A stretch of DNA of 64,000 nt from Promethearchaeota archaeon. Lineage in GTDB: Archaea > Asgardarchaeota > Lokiarchaeia > Sigyniarchaeales > SOKP01. How positions within the stretch are numbered: the stretch's first letter is position 1; each line of letters starts with the position of its first letter. Positions 4,883 to 15,537 of the stretch are shown piece by piece. The DNA is taken from NCBI GenBank assembly GCA_048938895.1, contig JBHLLU010000008.1, positions 1 through 64,000 on the forward strand. The letters are read 5' to 3'. The notes below the pieces were generated by a model that saw only the letters and a program-made list of their open reading frames with translations, was not told the DNA's origin and made no database searches. A program made the translations under genes and the position numbers.

Positions 4883-6505
4883 TCACCACTTAGTTTCTCT
4901 TTTCAATAATTTAAAAATATACGAATCAACAAGTGCTTCCCATGATGCTACAATGATATTCTCATGTGTTCCAATTGTACCCCATGATTTTCCGTTATCA
5001 TTCGTTTCAACTAATACTCTCACTTTTGAGGCAGTTCCTGCTTTATTAATTATTCTGACTTTAAAATCAGAAAGATTTATTTCTTTTAAACTTGGATAAA
5101 AATGAACTAATGCCTTTTTAAGAGCATTATCTAGCGCATTTACAGGACCATTTCCCTCAGCAGCCGTATGATATTCTTGACCTTTAACTTTTACTTTAAT
5201 CGTTGCTTCAGATATTAAATTTTTTTTACGCATATCAGTAAGTACTCGAAATCCTTCTAATTCAAAAAATTTCTTTCTATAATAATCCGGATCTTGAATG
5301 TTCATATCCATACTTCTCATAATAATTTCTAAAGAAGCTTCTGCACCTTCATAAACATATCCTTCATTCTCTTTTTGTTTGATCACTTCTAAAATCTCAG
5401 CAATTTTTGGATTCACTTCCGTTAAATGCATGCCAAATCTTTTGGACATGTGTAATATTGAACTTTTACCCGCTAATTCAGAAATTCTTATATTTCGAGA
5501 GTTTCCTACCAATTCGGGATTTATTTGTTCATAAGTTTTTGAATTTTTACGCATAGCTGAGATATGGACACCTCCTTTATGCGAAAATGCATTTCTTCCT
5601 ACAAAAGGTTGATCACTATTTCTAGGCAAATTGGTCATTTCGTAAATAAAGTGCGAAACTTCAGAGATATTTTCTAAATCTTCAAAAGATATGCAATTAA
5701 TTCCCATTTTTAATTTCAGAATTGGTAAAATTGTTGTTAAATCTGTATTACCACATCTTTCACCAAAACTATTTATCGTTCCTTGAATCATTCTAGCACC
5801 ATGGTGAAAAGCCTCTAAAGCAATAGCATTTGCCACACCAGAATCGTTATGGGCATGAATTCCTAAATGAACATCCTTTCCTAGAAAATCTTTTACCTTA
5901 TCAAATATTGGGCCTAATTCGTGTGGTAAGAGGCCGCCATTAGTATCACATAGAACAATCCATGACGCACCTGCATTATATGCGCACAAAATTGTTTGTA
6001 AAGCATATTGTTTATTGTTTTTAAATCCATCGAAAAAGTGCTCAGCATCATATACAACATCAATTCCATTTTTCTTTAAAAAGATAATTGTATCTCTAAT
6101 CATGTTAAGATTTTCTTTTAAACTAGTCTCTAAGGCGACCTTAACATGCAAATCCCAGCTCTTACCAAAAATTGCAGCATGTTTTGTGCCAACCGCTAAT
6201 AATGCTCTTAAGTTTCTGTCATCTTCAGTCTTAATATCCTTACGTCTAGTGCTCCCAAAAGCATAAAGCTTAGTCCCATTTGAATTTATATCCATTGTGT
6301 TAATTTTATTATAAAACATAATATCTTTTGGATTGGAACCAGGCCACCCAACTTCAATCATAGGAATGTGAAGATCGTTAATTAAGCGTTTGAGAATATG
6401 AATTTTATCCTCGACTGATAAACTAATTCCTGTTTTTTGACTTCCCTCCCGAAGGGTTGTATCATATATATACACTTTATTATCTGTGGTCAATGCCTTT
6501 TTCAC
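4883..6505 (-). CDS. cimA: Citramalate synthase (LeuA/CimA family with C-terminal regulatory domain)
   Basis: DTTLREG, FGKSWDLHV, DAEHFFDG, GIHAHND, GERCGN, HKGGVH motifs typical of the bacterial-type CimA clade. Confidence 0.88.
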   Translation of the reverse strand: MKKALTTDNKVYIYDTTLREGSQKTGISLSVEDKIHILKRLINDLHIPMIEVGWPGSNPKDIMFYNKINTMDINSNGTKLYAFGSTRRKDIKTEDDRNLRALLAVGTKHAAIFGKSWDLHVKVALETSLKENLNMIRDTIIFLKKNGIDVVYDAEHFFDGFKNNKQYALQTILCAYNAGASWIVLCDTNGGLLPHELGPIFDKVKDFLGKDVHLGIHAHNDSGVANAIALEAFHHGARMIQGTINSFGERCGNTDLTTILPILKLKMGINCISFEDLENISEVSHFIYEMTNLPRNSDQPFVGRNAFSHKGGVHISAMRKNSKTYEQINPELVGNSRNIRISELAGKSSILHMSKRFGMHLTEVNPKIAEILEVIKQKENEGYVYEGAEASLEIIMRSMDMNIQDPDYYRKKFFELEGFRVLTDMRKKNLISEATIKVKVKGQEYHTAAEGNGPVNALDNALKKALVHFYPSLKEINLSDFKVRIINKAGTASKVRVLVETNDNGKSWGTIGTHENIIVASWEALVDSYIFKLLKRETKW

Positions 6506-6559: not shown

Positions 6560-6581
6560 AAAAAAGTCAAGATAAGATGAC
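6560..6581 (-). terminator. Candidate attenuator terminator (GUCA-8 nt-UGAC stem followed by U6) in the cimA leader
   Basis: Minus strand reads gtcatcttatcttgactttttt, between the leader ORF stop and the cimA start; stem is short and weak. Confidence 0.35.
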
Positions 6582-6716: not shown

Positions 6717-6753
6717 GTTGGTAGTATATAATTGAAGCAAAATTCTAAAAGTT

Positions 6754-6903
6754 GGAGATAATAACGCAATCATAAAGATTTGTAATGGCAAAGAAGATTT
6801 TACCAATGAAATCAGTCGAGATGAGATTATGGTTGAAAAGAGCAAAGTTATAAATGTCATAAGATTAACAAGAGCAATCACCATAGTTTTAAAAAATGAA
6901 TAG
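6754..6903 (+). pseudogene. 3' fragment of an SCP2-domain gene (third copy)
   Basis: Translates GDNNAIIKICNGKEDFTNEISRDEIMVEKSKVINVIRLTRAITIVLKNE*, homologous to the C-termini of 1277..1648 and 15208..15537; in-frame TGA upstream and no start codon. Confidence 0.85.
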
Positions 6904-6904
6904 C

Positions 6905-7195
6905 TTATCTAGGGTAATCATTTTTAGATCCCATTAGAGTGGTTGTTTCTTCGATCCATTGAGATAAATCGTTATCAACTCTACAAAAGGTAACAATTTT
7001 GTCTAAATCTTTTAGTTTACTAAATGAACATTCCACGATCACATCCCATCCTCCATAAATGGGAGTAGCATACGTTATTTTCCAATCATTTTCTGATTCT
7101 ATTGAGTGTAAATCCTTTAGTTTCTCAACAACCTTCCATTCTGATCCGATTACTTTTAATCGAATCAAGATATAGCCTCTATAATACATTTTCAT
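6905..7195 (-). CDS. Stand-alone Lrp/AsnC ligand-binding (RAM) domain protein
   Basis: GYILIRL...IYGGWDVIVE...IEETTTL pattern of the AsnC C-terminal domain, no HTH; GGAGG SD before ATG 7195. Confidence 0.65.
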   Translation of the reverse strand: MKMYYRGYILIRLKVIGSEWKVVEKLKDLHSIESENDWKITYATPIYGGWDVIVECSFSKLKDLDKIVTFCRVDNDLSQWIEETTTLMGSKNDYPR

Positions 7196-7226
7196 ATCCT
7201 CCATCTTTTATTTATTTGCTTTTTTA

Positions 7227-11702: not shown

Positions 11703-12944
11703 TTATGTTCTGTAATTCCCATTAATTCGTACATAATCATAGGATAAATCACAACCCCAAGCAGTTGCTTCACCATTGCCATCTTTCAATATGACTTCAA
11801 CAATAATTTCATTTTTTTTCAAAATTTGTTTTGCTAATTTTTCATCGAATATTATAGGTATGCCATCATGCATGAGTTTAACCGAATTAGATCCGTTTTT
11901 AAATGTTATAGAAACTTTTGACGGATTAAATTTTGCTCCAGAATATCCCATGGCTGCAAGAATTCGACCCCAATTAGCATCCTCCCCAAAAAATGCCGTT
12001 TTCACTAAATTTGAAGTGATTACTGCTTTACTTAAGACTTTTGCTTCTTGATTAGAAGTTGCACCTTTAAGATTTACCGTAATGAATTTCTTAGCTCCTT
12101 CTCCATCCCTAACGATTTCTTGAGCTAAAAAAGTATTAACGTAATTTAATGCCTGTTTAAAAATATGATATTCCTTATTTTCCTCTTTAATTACTGAATT
12201 TCCGGCTAAACCATTAGCTAATAGAAATACTGAATCATTTGTGCTTGTATCTCCATCTACAGAGATCATGTGATACGAATCATCAACACTTTCCTTTAAA
12301 GCCTTATCCAATAATTCTCTTGAAATTTTAATATCAGTAGTGATAAAGGATAACATAGTTGCCATATTTGGATGTATCATTCCTGAACCTTTAGCCATCC
12401 CTCCAATTCTTATTCTCTTCTTATTAACAGAAAATTCAACTGTAATTTCTTTAGGATATGTATCCGTGGTCATAATTGCCTTAGCTGCTAAATGAGCATC
12501 TCTTTCCGTTTTTCCTAATTTTTGATATGTAGCATTGATTCCATCAAGTATCACATCAATTGGAAGAGGTACACCAATAACTCCCGTAGACGCAACGAGA
12601 ACTTGATTTTTATTTAAGTTTAAACAAGAGGCTAATTCAGCAGCTATTAATTCAGTATGATTAATCCCAATTTCTCCAGTACAAGCATTTGCATTTCCAC
12701 TATTAATAACAACCGCTTGGATTAGGTTTTGATTTTGAATAAGGTTTTGATCCCATAAAACCGGTGCTGCTTTTACCACATTTGTAGTGAATACCCCAAC
12801 TGCTTTAGCTGAAACTTCACTATATATTATAGCTAAGTCGTTCTTACCTTCTCTAATCCCAATATGATTACCAGTAGCATGATATCCCCTTGGACTTGTA
12901 ATCCCTCCATTGGTTTGTAATATTCCTACGTTTTTTGCTTCCAT
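11703..12944 (-). CDS. argJ: Ornithine acetyltransferase / N-acetylglutamate synthase
   Basis: NSGNANACTG, KGSGMIHPNMATML, DGDTSTND, DGEGA motifs. Confidence 0.97.
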   Translation of the reverse strand: MEAKNVGILQTNGGITSPRGYHATGNHIGIREGKNDLAIIYSEVSAKAVGVFTTNVVKAAPVLWDQNLIQNQNLIQAVVINSGNANACTGEIGINHTELIAAELASCLNLNKNQVLVASTGVIGVPLPIDVILDGINATYQKLGKTERDAHLAAKAIMTTDTYPKEITVEFSVNKKRIRIGGMAKGSGMIHPNMATMLSFITTDIKISRELLDKALKESVDDSYHMISVDGDTSTNDSVFLLANGLAGNSVIKEENKEYHIFKQALNYVNTFLAQEIVRDGEGAKKFITVNLKGATSNQEAKVLSKAVITSNLVKTAFFGEDANWGRILAAMGYSGAKFNPSKVSITFKNGSNSVKLMHDGIPIIFDEKLAKQILKKNEIIVEVILKDGNGEATAWGCDLSYDYVRINGNYRT

Positions 12945-13011
12945 TTCTCATGACCTCTTAAAATTGTATAATTTAATTCCCCCTATTAAAAAAATAATAA
13001 AAATAAAAATT

Positions 13012-13042
13012 TTGAAGAAGTAAAGAAAAAAAAATACTTCAA
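13012..13042 (-). terminator. Candidate attenuator element: GAAGTA/TACTTC stem enclosing a U9 tract, followed by further U-tracts
   Basis: Inverted repeat 13017-13022/13035-13040 around A9 (U9 in the transcript), about 30 nt downstream of the Arg-leader stop. Confidence 0.4.
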
Positions 13043-13063
13043 CTTATTATCTTTATTAAGAAA

Positions 13064-13159
13064 TTATCTACGGCGACGTGCCGATCTTTGATTGCGCGGT
13101 GCTTTTTGAAATTGTGTCCTTACAATTTCATAATTCCTATGAGGTCCAAGTGAAATCAA
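13064..13159 (-). CDS. Putative Arg-rich leader peptide of the arg operon, MISLGPHRNYEIVRTQFQKAPRNQRSARRRR (31 aa)
   Basis: Hand translation; TTG start with GGTG SD-like motif upstream; 8 Arg codons, ending CGT CGC CGT AGA TAA; ends 119 nt upstream of argJ. Confidence 0.78.
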   Translation of the reverse strand: MISLGPHRNYEIVRTQFQKAPRNQRSARRRR

Positions 13160-13210
13160 AGTTCAAAACACCAACACAATATTAATATTAACATAAATAT
13201 AGCATTGTTT

Positions 13211-13224
13211 ATTTATAAAAGTTA
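13211..13224 (-). promoter_or_regulatory. Candidate TATA box (TTTTATAAAT) of the arg leader/operon
   Basis: About 50 nt upstream of the leader start, leaving a short 5' UTR that contains the SD. Confidence 0.45.
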
Positions 13225-13405
13225 GGTAATAAATTAAACGATTCTTTAATAATTTCGTATTTTATTAAAAAATATAGTCAAAAAGAAAATATTTTATTAA
13301 ACGTTTGTTCCTTATTTTATTGCATTCGTTAAATATTTTTTAATACATAATTTGTATTAATAAAAACTTATCGATTTTTCATGAACATTTTTCAAAAAAC
13401 CTAAA

Positions 13406-14890
13406 TCATGAGATTAATTTTTTGATAATTTCTCCTCTAAGATTATCAGCCTTTTTAATCATTTCTATTCTTTCTGAAAATATTTTATGTAATGAATCTT
13501 TCTTATTTGTTAAAATACCAATGTCTTTTTTAATTTCTTTCTCAGAGGGAGAACCTTGGCTAATTCTTTTTTCTAAACAGAGATCTAAATTCTTTAATGT
13601 TTGAATTATATTTTCCGATATTGTTAACTTTTTATTCAGGACATCAAGAATATATTTCTCAATTTTTTCTTTCTTTAACAATTCTTCTGGTTTTTCTGAA
13701 TTTTTTACTAAAAGTGCAACTATTTCATGTGATTGCCTAAAAGGGATATTATACTCTTTTACTAATAACTCAGCTAAATCTAACGCAAGAATGTAACTTT
13801 CATCAATACTGCTTTTCATTATCTTTTTATTTACTGTAATGGTTGAGAATATCCCTTTGAACATATTAATCATTGAATCGACTTGACTAAATGAATGTTG
13901 TAATAATATCTTTAAATCTTGGAAATCCCTAAAATATCCTGTTGGAATTGCTTTAATAGTAATTGCAGCATTAAATAAGTTCGAAATAACTTTTGAACAT
14001 CTGCTTCTAATTAATTCCACTGTATCAGGATTTTTCTTTTGTGGCATAACGCTTGAAACAGAACAATACTCATCAGCAATTTCAATAAAATTAAATTCTT
14101 TACTAGACCAAACTATCAAGTCTTCAGCTATTCTCGAAAATTGAATAGCTAATAATGAAAGTACCATCAATGTTTCATAAATATAGTCTCGCGAACTAAT
14201 TGCGTCAATAGAATTATACACTATTCCATCAAATCCCAATAATTCTGAAGTTCTAACCCTATTAATATTAATACTTGTACCTCCAATAGCACAGGCACCA
14301 AGTGGATTCCTATTAATTCTATTATAAATCTCTTCAATTCTTTTTAGAGATCTTAAAATTTGTGCAATATAATTATTGATATAATGAGAAAAAACACCTA
14401 ATTGACCCCTTTGCAAGTGAGTATATAACGGGAGATACGATATAATATTATTTTTAGACAAAATAAATAAGATCTCAACAAGGGAGAATAAATCTTCGGA
14501 AATGTGATTTAGTTCTTTTCTGATTTTTAATCGTAAATCAACTGCTATTTGATCATTTCTTGATCTACCTGTATGCATTTTACCCCCAATATCAATCCCG
14601 ATTTCGTCGATAACAACCTTTTCGATAAAAGGATGAATATCCTCAAAATTTTTTTCAAGAGTTATATGACCATTTTTGATTTGTTTTTTTATTTTTTCAA
14701 GAGCAGGTAAGATGATTTTGATTTCAGTTTCACTAAGAATTTTTTGCTCATATAACATTATATCATGAACTTGAGTCCCAATAATATCCTCTTCAAAAAG
14801 CCAAACATCTTCTTTTAATGATGAAACAAACTCAAGTGCGTCATATTCAAGAGGAGTTCCTAACCTAGTTCTATAAAAATTTTTTCCCAT
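13406..14890 (-). CDS. argH: Argininosuccinate lyase
   Basis: HTGRSRNDQ, YTHLQRGQ, SSVMPQKKNPD motifs. Confidence 0.96.
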   Translation of the reverse strand: MGKNFYRTRLGTPLEYDALEFVSSLKEDVWLFEEDIIGTQVHDIMLYEQKILSETEIKIILPALEKIKKQIKNGHITLEKNFEDIHPFIEKVVIDEIGIDIGGKMHTGRSRNDQIAVDLRLKIRKELNHISEDLFSLVEILFILSKNNIISYLPLYTHLQRGQLGVFSHYINNYIAQILRSLKRIEEIYNRINRNPLGACAIGGTSININRVRTSELLGFDGIVYNSIDAISSRDYIYETLMVLSLLAIQFSRIAEDLIVWSSKEFNFIEIADEYCSVSSVMPQKKNPDTVELIRSRCSKVISNLFNAAITIKAIPTGYFRDFQDLKILLQHSFSQVDSMINMFKGIFSTITVNKKIMKSSIDESYILALDLAELLVKEYNIPFRQSHEIVALLVKNSEKPEELLKKEKIEKYILDVLNKKLTISENIIQTLKNLDLCLEKRISQGSPSEKEIKKDIGILTNKKDSLHKIFSERIEMIKKADNLRGEIIKKLIS

Positions 14891-15207: not shown

Positions 15208-15537
15208 ATGAATAATTCAGCTAAAGTTAAACAAGTATTTGTAACAGATATTGGGGGAAAGCCCATTAATTGGGATATAACATTTCAATTCTATTTAGAG
15301 GGTGAAGAACCATTCCACTTGATAATAAAAGACCAGGAGCTTAGCCTTTATTTAGGAATTGGACCCCGAGCAAATGTCGTAATGTCTGGAGATAATAATG
15401 CTATCGTAAAAATATGTAATGGTAAAGGAGATTTTACACATGCTATAAGTCGTGAAGAAATTACCGTTGAAAAAGGTAAAGTTATGGATGTAATTAGACT
15501 AACGAGGGCAATAGCAATAGTTTTAAAAACAGTTTAA
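15208..15537 (+). CDS. Second copy of the SCP2-domain protein (N-terminally shortened, possibly decaying)
   Basis: Near-identical to 1277..1648; a 1-nt deletion near 15195 puts the upstream TTG start out of frame. Confidence 0.7.
   Translation: MNNSAKVKQVFVTDIGGKPINWDITFQFYLEGEEPFHLIIKDQELSLYLGIGPRANVVMSGDNNAIVKICNGKGDFTHAISREEITVEKGKVMDVIRLTRAIAIVLKTV

Follow-up and report, generated by a model that had tools for sequence, protein, structure and literature searches.

According to our analysis, a 64,000-nucleotide (nt) stretch of contig JBHLLU010000008.1 (positions 1 to 64,000 of the forward strand; hereafter the window) from the Promethearchaeota archaeon assembly GCA_048938895.1 carries, directly upstream of the arginine biosynthesis gene argJ, a short element which, judging from its sequence, is a conserved and cis-linked leader with a maintained open reading frame (ORF) containing arginine codons and with a terminator-like 3′ part. 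We consider it likely that this element operates as a ribosome-mediated, arginine-sensing attenuator, namely, as the translated leader of the argJBDCG transcript. The element is one of several leaders with cognate codons that this archaeal lineage possesses, and the leader-peptide reading is strongly supported, since small ORFs (sORFs) rich in the cognate residue also precede trp, leuA, and cimA genes. This is probably the first ribosome-mediated attenuator system of Archaea.

The arginine-codon leader upstream of argJ

The element lies entirely on the minus strand. The gene argH (13406-14890, minus strand; Pfam Lyase_1 and ASL_C2) is followed by a 461-nt spacer and then by argJ (11703-12944, ATG at 12944), the first gene of the series argJ-argB-argD-argC-argG (12944-7227, minus strand), which we presume to be an operon under the control of the leader. 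Pfam assigns the five products to ArgJ, AA_kinase, Aminotran_3, Semialdhyde_dh, and Arginosuc_synth, in agreement with the gene identities proposed in an earlier note that had been made from the DNA sequence alone. The same note had described a TATA-like box, a GGTG motif, and a 31-codon ORF with 8 Arg codons ending in CGT CGC CGT AGA and TAA, all of which are found at the reported positions (Table 1), as are the 9-bp stem inside the ORF (13130-13122 with 13115-13107, here part of the helix P3) and the GAAGTA/TACTTC stem around a U9 tract with further T-runs behind it. The GC-rich patch that it had seen in an otherwise AT-rich spacer is borne out by a GC content of 0.38 for 13050-13149 compared with 0.14 to 0.20 in the flanking spacer. 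Two further pairings that it listed, TCATA/TATGA and CGGC/GCCG, are present in the window copy but are not conserved as such.

Table 1. Coordinates of the arg leader features and of the parallel sORFs
Feature	Position	Strand	Remarks
CGTTTAATTTATT box	13228..13240	-	Corresponds to the invariant CGTTTAA-TTTATA of relatives, similar to a transcription factor B recognition element (BRE) and TATA box; from the alignment of 8 spacers
TATA-like box TTTTATAAAT	13220->13211	-	Aligns with TTTATA[TA]A in all 8 loci
P1 5′ strand ATTGTGTTGGTGTT	13167..13180	-	Includes the Shine-Dalgarno (SD)-like GGTG (13172-13169)
Leader ORF MISLGPHRNYEIVRTQFQKAPRNQRSARRRR, then stop	13159->13064	-	31 codons plus TAA, TTG start, 8 Arg codons
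P3 hairpin GAAATTGT / ACAATTTC	13108..13129	-	Codons 11-17; variable loop
P1 3′ strand AAGCACCGCGCAAT	13091..13104	-	Codons 19-23; pairs with the transcript 5′ end and the SD-like motif
Arg-codon cluster	13067..13087	-	AGA (codon 25), CGT CGC CGT AGA (codons 28-31, 13078->13067)
Terminator-like hairpin GAAGTA-(U9CUU)-TACTTC	13017..13040	-	Arms 13040-13035 / 13022-13017, enclosing TTTTTTTTTCTT
U-tracts T5, T5, T7	13009-12988	-	T7 conserved; putative archaeal termination signal
SD-like GAGGT	12953..12957	-	13 nt before the argJ ATG
Ile-rich sORF MRLVLIPIVGITILLIIIGII, then stop	6677-6612	-	106 nt upstream of citramalate synthase (cimA, 4883-6505)
Trp-rich sORF MSTVKIFSWRWQCWWRV, then stop (ends SWRWQCWWRV)	C53:28352-28405 (L221)	-	168 nt upstream of TrpD
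Trp-rich sORF MKLATTPEWCWQWPWRWR, then stop (ends EWCWQWPWRWR)	C67:9640-9696 (L220)	+	148 nt upstream of a TrpB-like enzyme
Leu-rich frame ...LTLDLLLLL, then stop	C104:9266-9448 (L225)	-	92 nt upstream of 2-isopropylmalate synthase (leuA)

The TATA-like box TTTTATAAAT is probably the promoter of the leader transcript, and the general rule for the distance between a TATA box and the transcription start predicts initiation about 10 to 13 nt before GTTGGTG, a heptamer which is invariant in all 22 complete copies of the element described below. In the window copy, an insertion of about 14 nt follows the CGTTTAATTTATT box. The GGTG within the heptamer stands 9 nt ahead of the TTG start codon, that is, at -13; in this genome, SD-like 4-mers occur at -16 to -9 of the start codons of 469 of 2,302 genes, compared with 139 of 2,302 in a control window. 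The GAGGT in front of argJ, replaced by the weaker GAGT, AGGT, or GGGT in relatives, argues for a leadered argJ mRNA. We looked for a 16S rRNA from which to read the anti-SD sequence and found none in this assembly; aragorn likewise reported only 17 tRNAs in it, one of them a tRNA-Arg (TCG). Among the 5,228 intergenic sORFs of the window's genome, only four have at least 4 Arg in 5 codons, and the leader ORF is the only one of them that adjoins an arg gene.

Further upstream, between 13228 and 13330 on the minus strand and in the aligned spacers of loci L013 to L019, two to three imperfect [AT][TC]GTTTAA[CT] boxes occur about 40 to 60 nt apart, located upstream of the leader TATA box and abutting it; a DNA-binding protein that regulates the same promoter may use them as its operator.

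The element is as restricted in its distribution as the gene it precedes. ArgJ is rare in these archaea: 9 of the 135 family genomes encode it, as do 12 of 161 in the class and 14 of a sample of 400 from the phylum. A DNA search of 154 genomes of the order returned seven further full-length copies, and all eight genome loci show the same arrangement of argH, a spacer of 339 to 461 nt holding the element, and argJ. A pattern scan of one metagenome added 22 stretches, of which 17 are the element and 5 are unrelated; after two identical cores were dropped, the collection amounts to 23 distinct sequences, 22 of them complete. The covariance model R1, built from these sequences, finds exactly one copy in each of the same 9 family genomes that possess ArgJ and none in the other 126. 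The copy always immediately precedes argJ, its orientation being constant and its distance about 120 nt, and R1 detects no second copy in the window's genome or in any other genome tested with it. A scan of 12000-14500 against Rfam 15 yielded only two matches at chance level (E = 2.4 and 6.9), neither of them inside the element. In the relative G024, the element is situated on contig C7 at about position 747,000. In this same genome (locus L015), the first codons of argJ are partly duplicated by 26 nt, with a 7-codon ORF (MEIKGMF and stop) at the aligned start and the true ArgJ start located 26 nt downstream of it.

A diverged copy, L070 in genome G144, is 47 to 50% identical to the others and aligns without gaps, matching at 42 to 45 of 90 nt against 14 to 27 at other offsets; it has an ATG 9 nt after GGTG and a colinear 30-codon ORF. 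Outside the class, the closest relatives of ArgJ are bacterial (Melainabacteria, Clostridia, and Spirochaetes; 47 to 55% identity), and the arg operon was therefore probably acquired horizontally. The leader itself looks lineage specific: R1 gave no match at 80 bacterial ArgJ loci or at loci L003, L004, and L071 to L073, and inspection of 47 of the 80 bacterial loci showed 9 with a gap of at least 80 nt upstream of the gene and, among these loci, two weak and unconvincing Arg-rich sORFs. At locus L003 (genome G035), the sORF MYINRIKNKKMLNFRLISDFRHN followed by a stop codon lies about 245 nt upstream of argJ, and has CGC and CGG codons close to its end; hairpins with T-runs lie behind it. Its end resembles that of L070; however, since R1 fails to recognize L003, we do not count it as a homologue, and it may be an independent analogue or a chance occurrence.

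The ORF is open in 22 of the 22 complete copies. When alignment columns were swapped among positions sharing the same consensus base, all 22 remained open in 0.46% of 5,000 shuffles (p = 0.0046), and the corresponding figure for the set of eight sequences was 1.7% of 20,000. The start codon is TTG in 21 copies and ATG in one, TAA occupies the same column in 21 of 22, and the stop context UAAUU is invariant. Insertions and deletions are absent from the ORF and numerous in the 3′ part of the element. As regards the Arg codons, codon 25 is AGA in 19 of 22 copies, and codon 28 encodes Arg in all 22 (CGG in 15, CGT in 6, CGC in 1); codon 29 varies among Arg (9 copies), Leu (10), and His (3), whereas codons 30 and 31 encode Arg in 20 and 2 copies, respectively, so that R-x-x-R-x-R is what is conserved. 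At AGA25 and CGG28, the copies agree with L070 in small islands that are not accounted for by the RNA helices, and L070 has CGG24 in addition. The eight genome copies have 2 to 8 Arg codons each, with 8 of 31 in the window copy, compared with a genome average of 3.8% Arg. The codons CGC, CGG, and CGT are rare in this genome, with shares of 0.13%, 0.16%, and 0.45%.

Cognate-codon sORFs at trp, leu, and ile genes

A first sORF scan, in which no fewer than 4 of 5 residues had to be identical and from which I, L, K, N, and F were excluded, missed the other leaders. In a second scan, the 5,228 intergenic sORFs were filtered for tails rich in one residue, and 23 were found; family searches covered the downstream genes of 11 of these 23, and loci L230 and L231, although fetched, were not among the loci scanned. 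The scan recovered two Trp-rich sORFs, a Leu-rich frame, and an Ile-rich sORF, each upstream of a gene for the synthesis of the matching amino acid (Table 1; C53, C67, and C104 are contigs of genome G000). Relatives of these leaders were picked by the enzyme and not by the leader, and Leu frames were read from stop to stop.

The two Trp-rich sORFs are related to each other, and each has its stop codon inside a small GC hairpin. Of 25 trpD loci in the family, 13 have a homologous Trp-rich W-x-W-x-W sORF; this W-x-W alternation in the Trp leaders recalls the R-x-R pattern of the Arg leader. In the case of leuA, which has matches in 63 of 135 genomes, all 30 loci fetched possess the Leu-rich tail SL.L.L..L.L.LLLL before the stop codon. 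Elsewhere in the order, a second family has the tail at 3 of its 5 evaluable loci, and two families of higher GC content have it at 0 of 4 loci. The gene cimA is present in 30 of 135 genomes, and an Ile-rich sORF of the form MKxIIP...IIIGII, ending at the stop codon, precedes it at 26 of 27 evaluable loci from several genera. The stop codon of this Ile leader lies within AAUUUC; behind it come GAAAUUUUAAAC and GUUUAAAAUUUC, both 12 nt long, invariant, and perfectly complementary to each other, and after these a U-rich stretch, the conserved 3′ part extending to about position 6560. The Ile leader thus has the same design as the Arg leader, with the stop codon inside the first pairing segment. 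A TATA-like box lies 22 to 24 nt before the ATG of the Ile sORF, which suggests that the latter is leaderless.

The parallel Trp, Leu, and Ile sORFs are as expected from a cognate-codon leader system and constitute the strongest new evidence of the analysis. Of these leaders, those for Leu and Ile have the widest distribution. The remaining results of the scan are unrelated and include H-, T-, M-, and P-rich sORFs, one L-rich sORF, and two I-rich sORFs, which precede CoA_trans, NosD, ThiF, DNA_alkylation, GNAT, DnaJ, and HisKA genes.

RNA folding, proposed mechanism, and alternative explanations

RNAalifold and pair counts identify two helices in the 5′ part of the leader. P1, with 12 pairs, joins the 5′ end, including GGUG, to codons 19 to 23 (96.9% of cells paired; two pairs changed on both sides), and P3 has 8 pairs (99.4% of cells paired; one compensatory pair and four U-A to U-G changes). 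The diverged copy L070 keeps P1 as AUGGUGCU/AGCACCGU, and its leader fold has a z score of -3.62. Downstream of the ORF, a purine-rich and a pyrimidine-rich arm form a hairpin in two registers (95.9% and 90.6% of cells paired); the GAAGTA/TACTTC of the window corresponds to GAAGTG/CACTTC in relatives, a compensatory change, and with its flank the window hairpin folds at -6.1 kcal/mol. This conserved hairpin and the T5 to T7 runs, both located between the ORF and argJ, have the appearance of a terminator. Our terminator scan, which used a bacterial consensus with loops of 3 to 8 nt, missed the hairpin and returned 7 terminator-like sites against 6.5 expected. Archaeal terminators are described, in excerpts of PMC8716108, as U-tracts bound by aCPSF1 with no requirement for a hairpin, the Lokiarchaeota orthologue behaving alike.

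A possible link between the ORF and the hairpin is offered by a segment that we designate S1, consisting of codon 31, UAA, and UUCU, which is complementary in 17 of 22 copies to S2, the 5′ arm of the terminator hairpin. Over the alignment, 91.1% of cells pair between S1 and S2, compared with 39 to 58% when the partner is slid. For locus L014, S1:S2 has a folding energy of -9.3 kcal/mol as long as the 3′ arm is still missing, and the whole region one of -9.6 kcal/mol with the 3′ arm; in these models the S1:S2 pairing and the terminator are a balanced pair of alternatives. The U-tract has a mean unpaired probability of 0.68 with a ribosome at the stop codon and of 0.47 to 0.54 otherwise, and its accessibility is greater with the ribosome at the stop in 20 of 22 sequences, the exceptions being the window copy and L019. 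One possibility is that, whenever no ribosome occupies the stop codon, an A-rich segment downstream of this codon pairs with the U-tract.

On these grounds, we infer that the ORF is translated, that ribosomes stall on it, and that their position decides between termination and read-through. Transcription would begin about 25 nt before the TTG, downstream of the BRE/TATA-type promoter, and a ribosome would load at GGUG-N9-UUG and translate the 31 codons. With Arg-tRNA scarce, it would stall at Arg codons 25 and 28 to 30 and, in the window copy, also at codons 8, 14, 22, and 31; with arginine plentiful, it would proceed to the UAA. The position of the ribosome would set the folding of the RNA around and after the stop codon, and this folding would determine whether RNA polymerase halts at the hairpin and U-tracts, intrinsically or assisted by aCPSF1/FttA, or continues into argJ. 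In most relatives, only a ribosome at the stop codon would mask S1 and free S2 for the terminator, and a ribosome held upstream, e.g., at codon 25, would leave S1 free. The wider proposal, that Asgard archaea of this order run ribosome-mediated attenuators for Arg, Trp (twice), Leu, and Ile on a eukaryote-like transcription apparatus, with the position of the ribosome gating termination at U-tracts by aCPSF1 (FttA), is one whose truth and falsity we hold to be evenly balanced.

Several observations weigh against an arginine-sensing attenuator. P1 sequesters the SD-like GGUG, and TTG is a weak start codon. The tandem Arg run with which the earlier note characterized the ORF is particular to the window: an ORF with Arg codons near its end is indeed found at every orthologous locus, but RRRR is not, ten copies having R-L-R at codons 28 to 30, and one copy has only two Arg codons. 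RNA helices account for much of the conservation. Frame-specific purifying selection was not detected, with a ratio of nonsynonymous to synonymous changes (pN/pS) of 0.74 in the ORF and of 0.69 and 0.80 in the other frames, and the synonymous variation anticipated by the note amounts to a weak excess (fraction 0.317 vs 0.265 in shuffles, p = 0.09); because of these null results, we do not claim selection on the peptide sequence. The S1:S2 pairing shows no covariation, half of S2 is missing in 5 of 22 copies, and in the window copy the pairing is essentially absent (-1.2 kcal/mol, z = +1.7). Moreover, a ribosome stalled at codons 28 to 30 would cover part of S1. The note had also proposed folding the leader with and without a ribosome footprint; at equilibrium, no consistent terminator/antiterminator switch appears, and because the terminator hairpin persists in nearly all ribosome-mask states, we dropped a classical thermodynamic switch. 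The note's idea that Arg-tRNA charging is sensed through ribosome stalling gains from the parallel Trp-, Leu-, and Ile-rich sORFs and lacks a consistent folding switch.

Four other explanations were weighed. The element might be an independent small gene, encoding a small RNA of about 190 nt or the 31-residue peptide, with its own promoter and hairpin/U-tract terminator, the argJ promoter lying in or after the T-rich tract and the link to arginine arising in trans or through transcriptional interference. The hairpin and U-tracts do resemble a full terminator, predicted whatever the position of the ribosome, and P1 is a 5′-terminal helix as in stable small RNAs. In addition, the TATA-like TTAAAATA lies at -31 of argJ, where the TATA-like words of this genome peak, which suggests a leaderless subset of genes; argJ could thus have a promoter of its own in this word or in the T-rich tract, a further point against attenuation. 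However, a small gene of this kind would hardly be expected as one copy per genome, in fixed orientation about 120 nt from argJ and only in genomes with argJ. The SD-like motif at -13 speaks for a leadered argJ mRNA, the 26-nt duplication in L015 shifts the ArgJ start and would break a leaderless design, and the layout of sORF, spacer of about 90 to 170 nt, and gene is repeated with matching codons at trp, leu, and ile genes. We regard this explanation as unlikely. Much less probable still is that the palindromes are DNA operators at which a transcription factor forms a roadblock downstream of the promoter, with no function at the RNA level. Such operators would fit the perfect 8+8 palindrome of invariant sequence GAAATTGT-N6-ACAATTTC and the boxes repeated upstream of the TATA box and at it, but the changes are G-U compatible only on the sense RNA (the four U-A to U-G changes in P3 and several in P1), P1 joins segments 65 nt apart, and the maintenance of the ORF and its Arg codons would be left unexplained.

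Two more alternatives accept a leader and differ from Arg-codon sensing in what is read. If the leader were a structured RNA recognized by a protein or a small ligand, as in a riboswitch or in protein-mediated attenuation, the frame would be a by-product of constrained sequence. Conservation is indeed seen at the nucleotide level and without codon periodicity, the residues in common with L070 are mostly in P1 and P3, both helices are kept with G-U-compatible and compensatory changes, and L070 itself has a low fold z score. We nevertheless deem this explanation very unlikely: the frame is open beyond shuffle expectation (p = 0.005), the start changes only between TTG and ATG, the GGTG-N9-start spacing is kept in L070, Arg codons 25 and 28 are what L070 shares beyond the helices, Rfam provides no match, and the four other leaders of the lineage differ in sequence and have in common only the principle of a cognate-codon sORF. 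Alternatively, the nascent peptide might sense free arginine and hold the ribosome on the stop codon or close to it, so that the stop-overlapping segment is masked and the terminator forms. The fixed length of 30 to 31 residues, the conserved consensus LISLDPHLNNEIVSIQFPKAPHNPRPAR.RL, the invariant UAAUU context with the stop codon inside S1, and a conserved unit that is R-x-R and not an Arg run would all suit such a peptide. Purifying selection on it was, however, not detected, its identity with L070 is about 8 of 30 residues, mostly at positions fixed by helices, and the cognate-residue runs for Trp, Leu, and Ile fit the sensing of codons better than four ligand-sensing peptides; a peptide sensor thus seems to us quite improbable. 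An attenuator that reads Arg codons through the ribosome remains our preferred explanation.

Genomic surroundings and comparison with known systems

The window's genome contains three genes for the TATA-binding protein (TBP) and five actin-family genes (top score, 418 bits), and genes for an archaeal-type RecJ and a dimeric GlyRS lie on the same contig as the leader element; the chromosome is hence of an Asgard-type archaeon and no bacterial contaminant. Metagenome assemblies are the sole source of knowledge of this organism. Right after the argH stop codon (13350-13405, minus strand), there is a small conserved palindrome (TTGAAAATTGTTCAA in relatives) with a T5-T6 run, which is probably the argH terminator, and the leader promoter would therefore open a separate transcription unit. 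Directly after argG, a 99-amino-acid ORF (6905-7204, minus strand) has a related fragment on contig C4. By eye it had suggested a RAM/ACT-type domain, an assignment that we rejected, as Pfam gives only a chance match at E<=10. An element of about 150 to 170 nt occurs three times in the window (6730-6902, 15369-15529, and 1498-1647) with 75 to 78% identity and is present in many genomes of the family. At 15208-15537, it overlaps a 109-amino-acid plus-strand ORF with a weak SCP2 match, and the copy at 6730-6902 may be decayed, since only short frames are found there.

In bacteria, leader-peptide attenuation is the textbook outcome of coupled transcription and translation, exemplified by trpL, hisL, leuL, ilvL, thrL, and pheL of Enterobacteria; we know of no classical leader peptide of arginine biosynthesis. 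The arg leader resembles these attenuators in its succession of promoter, ribosome-binding site, sORF with codons for the end product, hairpin with a U-run, and first biosynthetic gene, and also in being lineage specific and fast evolving and in serving several pathways per genome, here those of Arg, Trp, Leu, and Ile. It differs from them in its Asgard host with a TBP/TATA promoter, in the amino acid being arginine, in Arg codons that are interleaved (R-x-R) 1 to 7 codons before the stop, and in an antiterminator that is weak or absent in the window copy. A further difference lies in archaeal termination, which, as excerpts of PMC8716108 have it, proceeds via U-tracts and aCPSF1/FttA with no strict hairpin mechanism.

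The nearest arginine example is orf34 in the leader of Salmonella speF, which according to excerpts of PMC6386406 is an upstream ORF (uORF) that senses arginine by pausing at Arg codons and affects premature termination and mRNA folding. Unlike the arg leader, it is bacterial, controls ornithine decarboxylase and not Arg synthesis, and acts with Rho and RNase G; its two consecutive Arg codons are in the middle of its 34 codons (same excerpts of PMC6386406). A sequence relationship with the Asgard leader is not expected. The leaderless polycysteine sORFs of mycobacteria, as described in parts of bioRxiv 10.1101/834739, are likewise rich in a cognate residue and located upstream of the matching operon, and the Ile leader at cimA, which also looks leaderless, is similar to them in this respect. 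They are bacterial, and the arg leader, unlike them, has a 5′ untranslated region of about 25 nt with the SD-like GGUG. As for Archaea, the word "attenuation" has 0 occurrences in the review of archaeal coupling PMC8116511, PMC10219788 makes only the general statement that uORFs act in archaea, and PMC7261190 treats uORFs in Haloferax with no link to attenuation.

The titles and abstracts of the literature searched mention no archaeal leader-peptide attenuator, in keeping with the earlier note, whose author knew of none. If our interpretation is true, the arg leader would be the first case of ribosome-mediated transcription attenuation in Archaea and would show directly that transcription and translation are tightly coupled in the prokaryotes most closely related to eukaryotes, the Asgard ribosome trailing RNA polymerase closely enough to control termination. 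It would also serve as a natural reporter of coupling in archaea and of the access of FttA/aCPSF1, and would make it clearer how seemingly horizontally acquired operons come under amino-acid control in an archaeal host.

On the eukaryotic side, the arginine attenuator peptide (AAP) of fungi, encoded by the uORF of arg-2/CPA1, has 24 to 25 residues, senses free Arg while still nascent, and causes stalling at its stop codon independently of Arg codons. The arg leader is like the AAP in being a short uORF of similar length before an arginine biosynthesis gene, and the AAP occurs in the eukaryote-related branch; unlike the AAP, it has parallels in the Trp, Leu, and Ile sORFs, which argue for the sensing of codons. 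The element has the look of a leader-peptide attenuator of the bacterial style, a kind of control so far undescribed in archaea.

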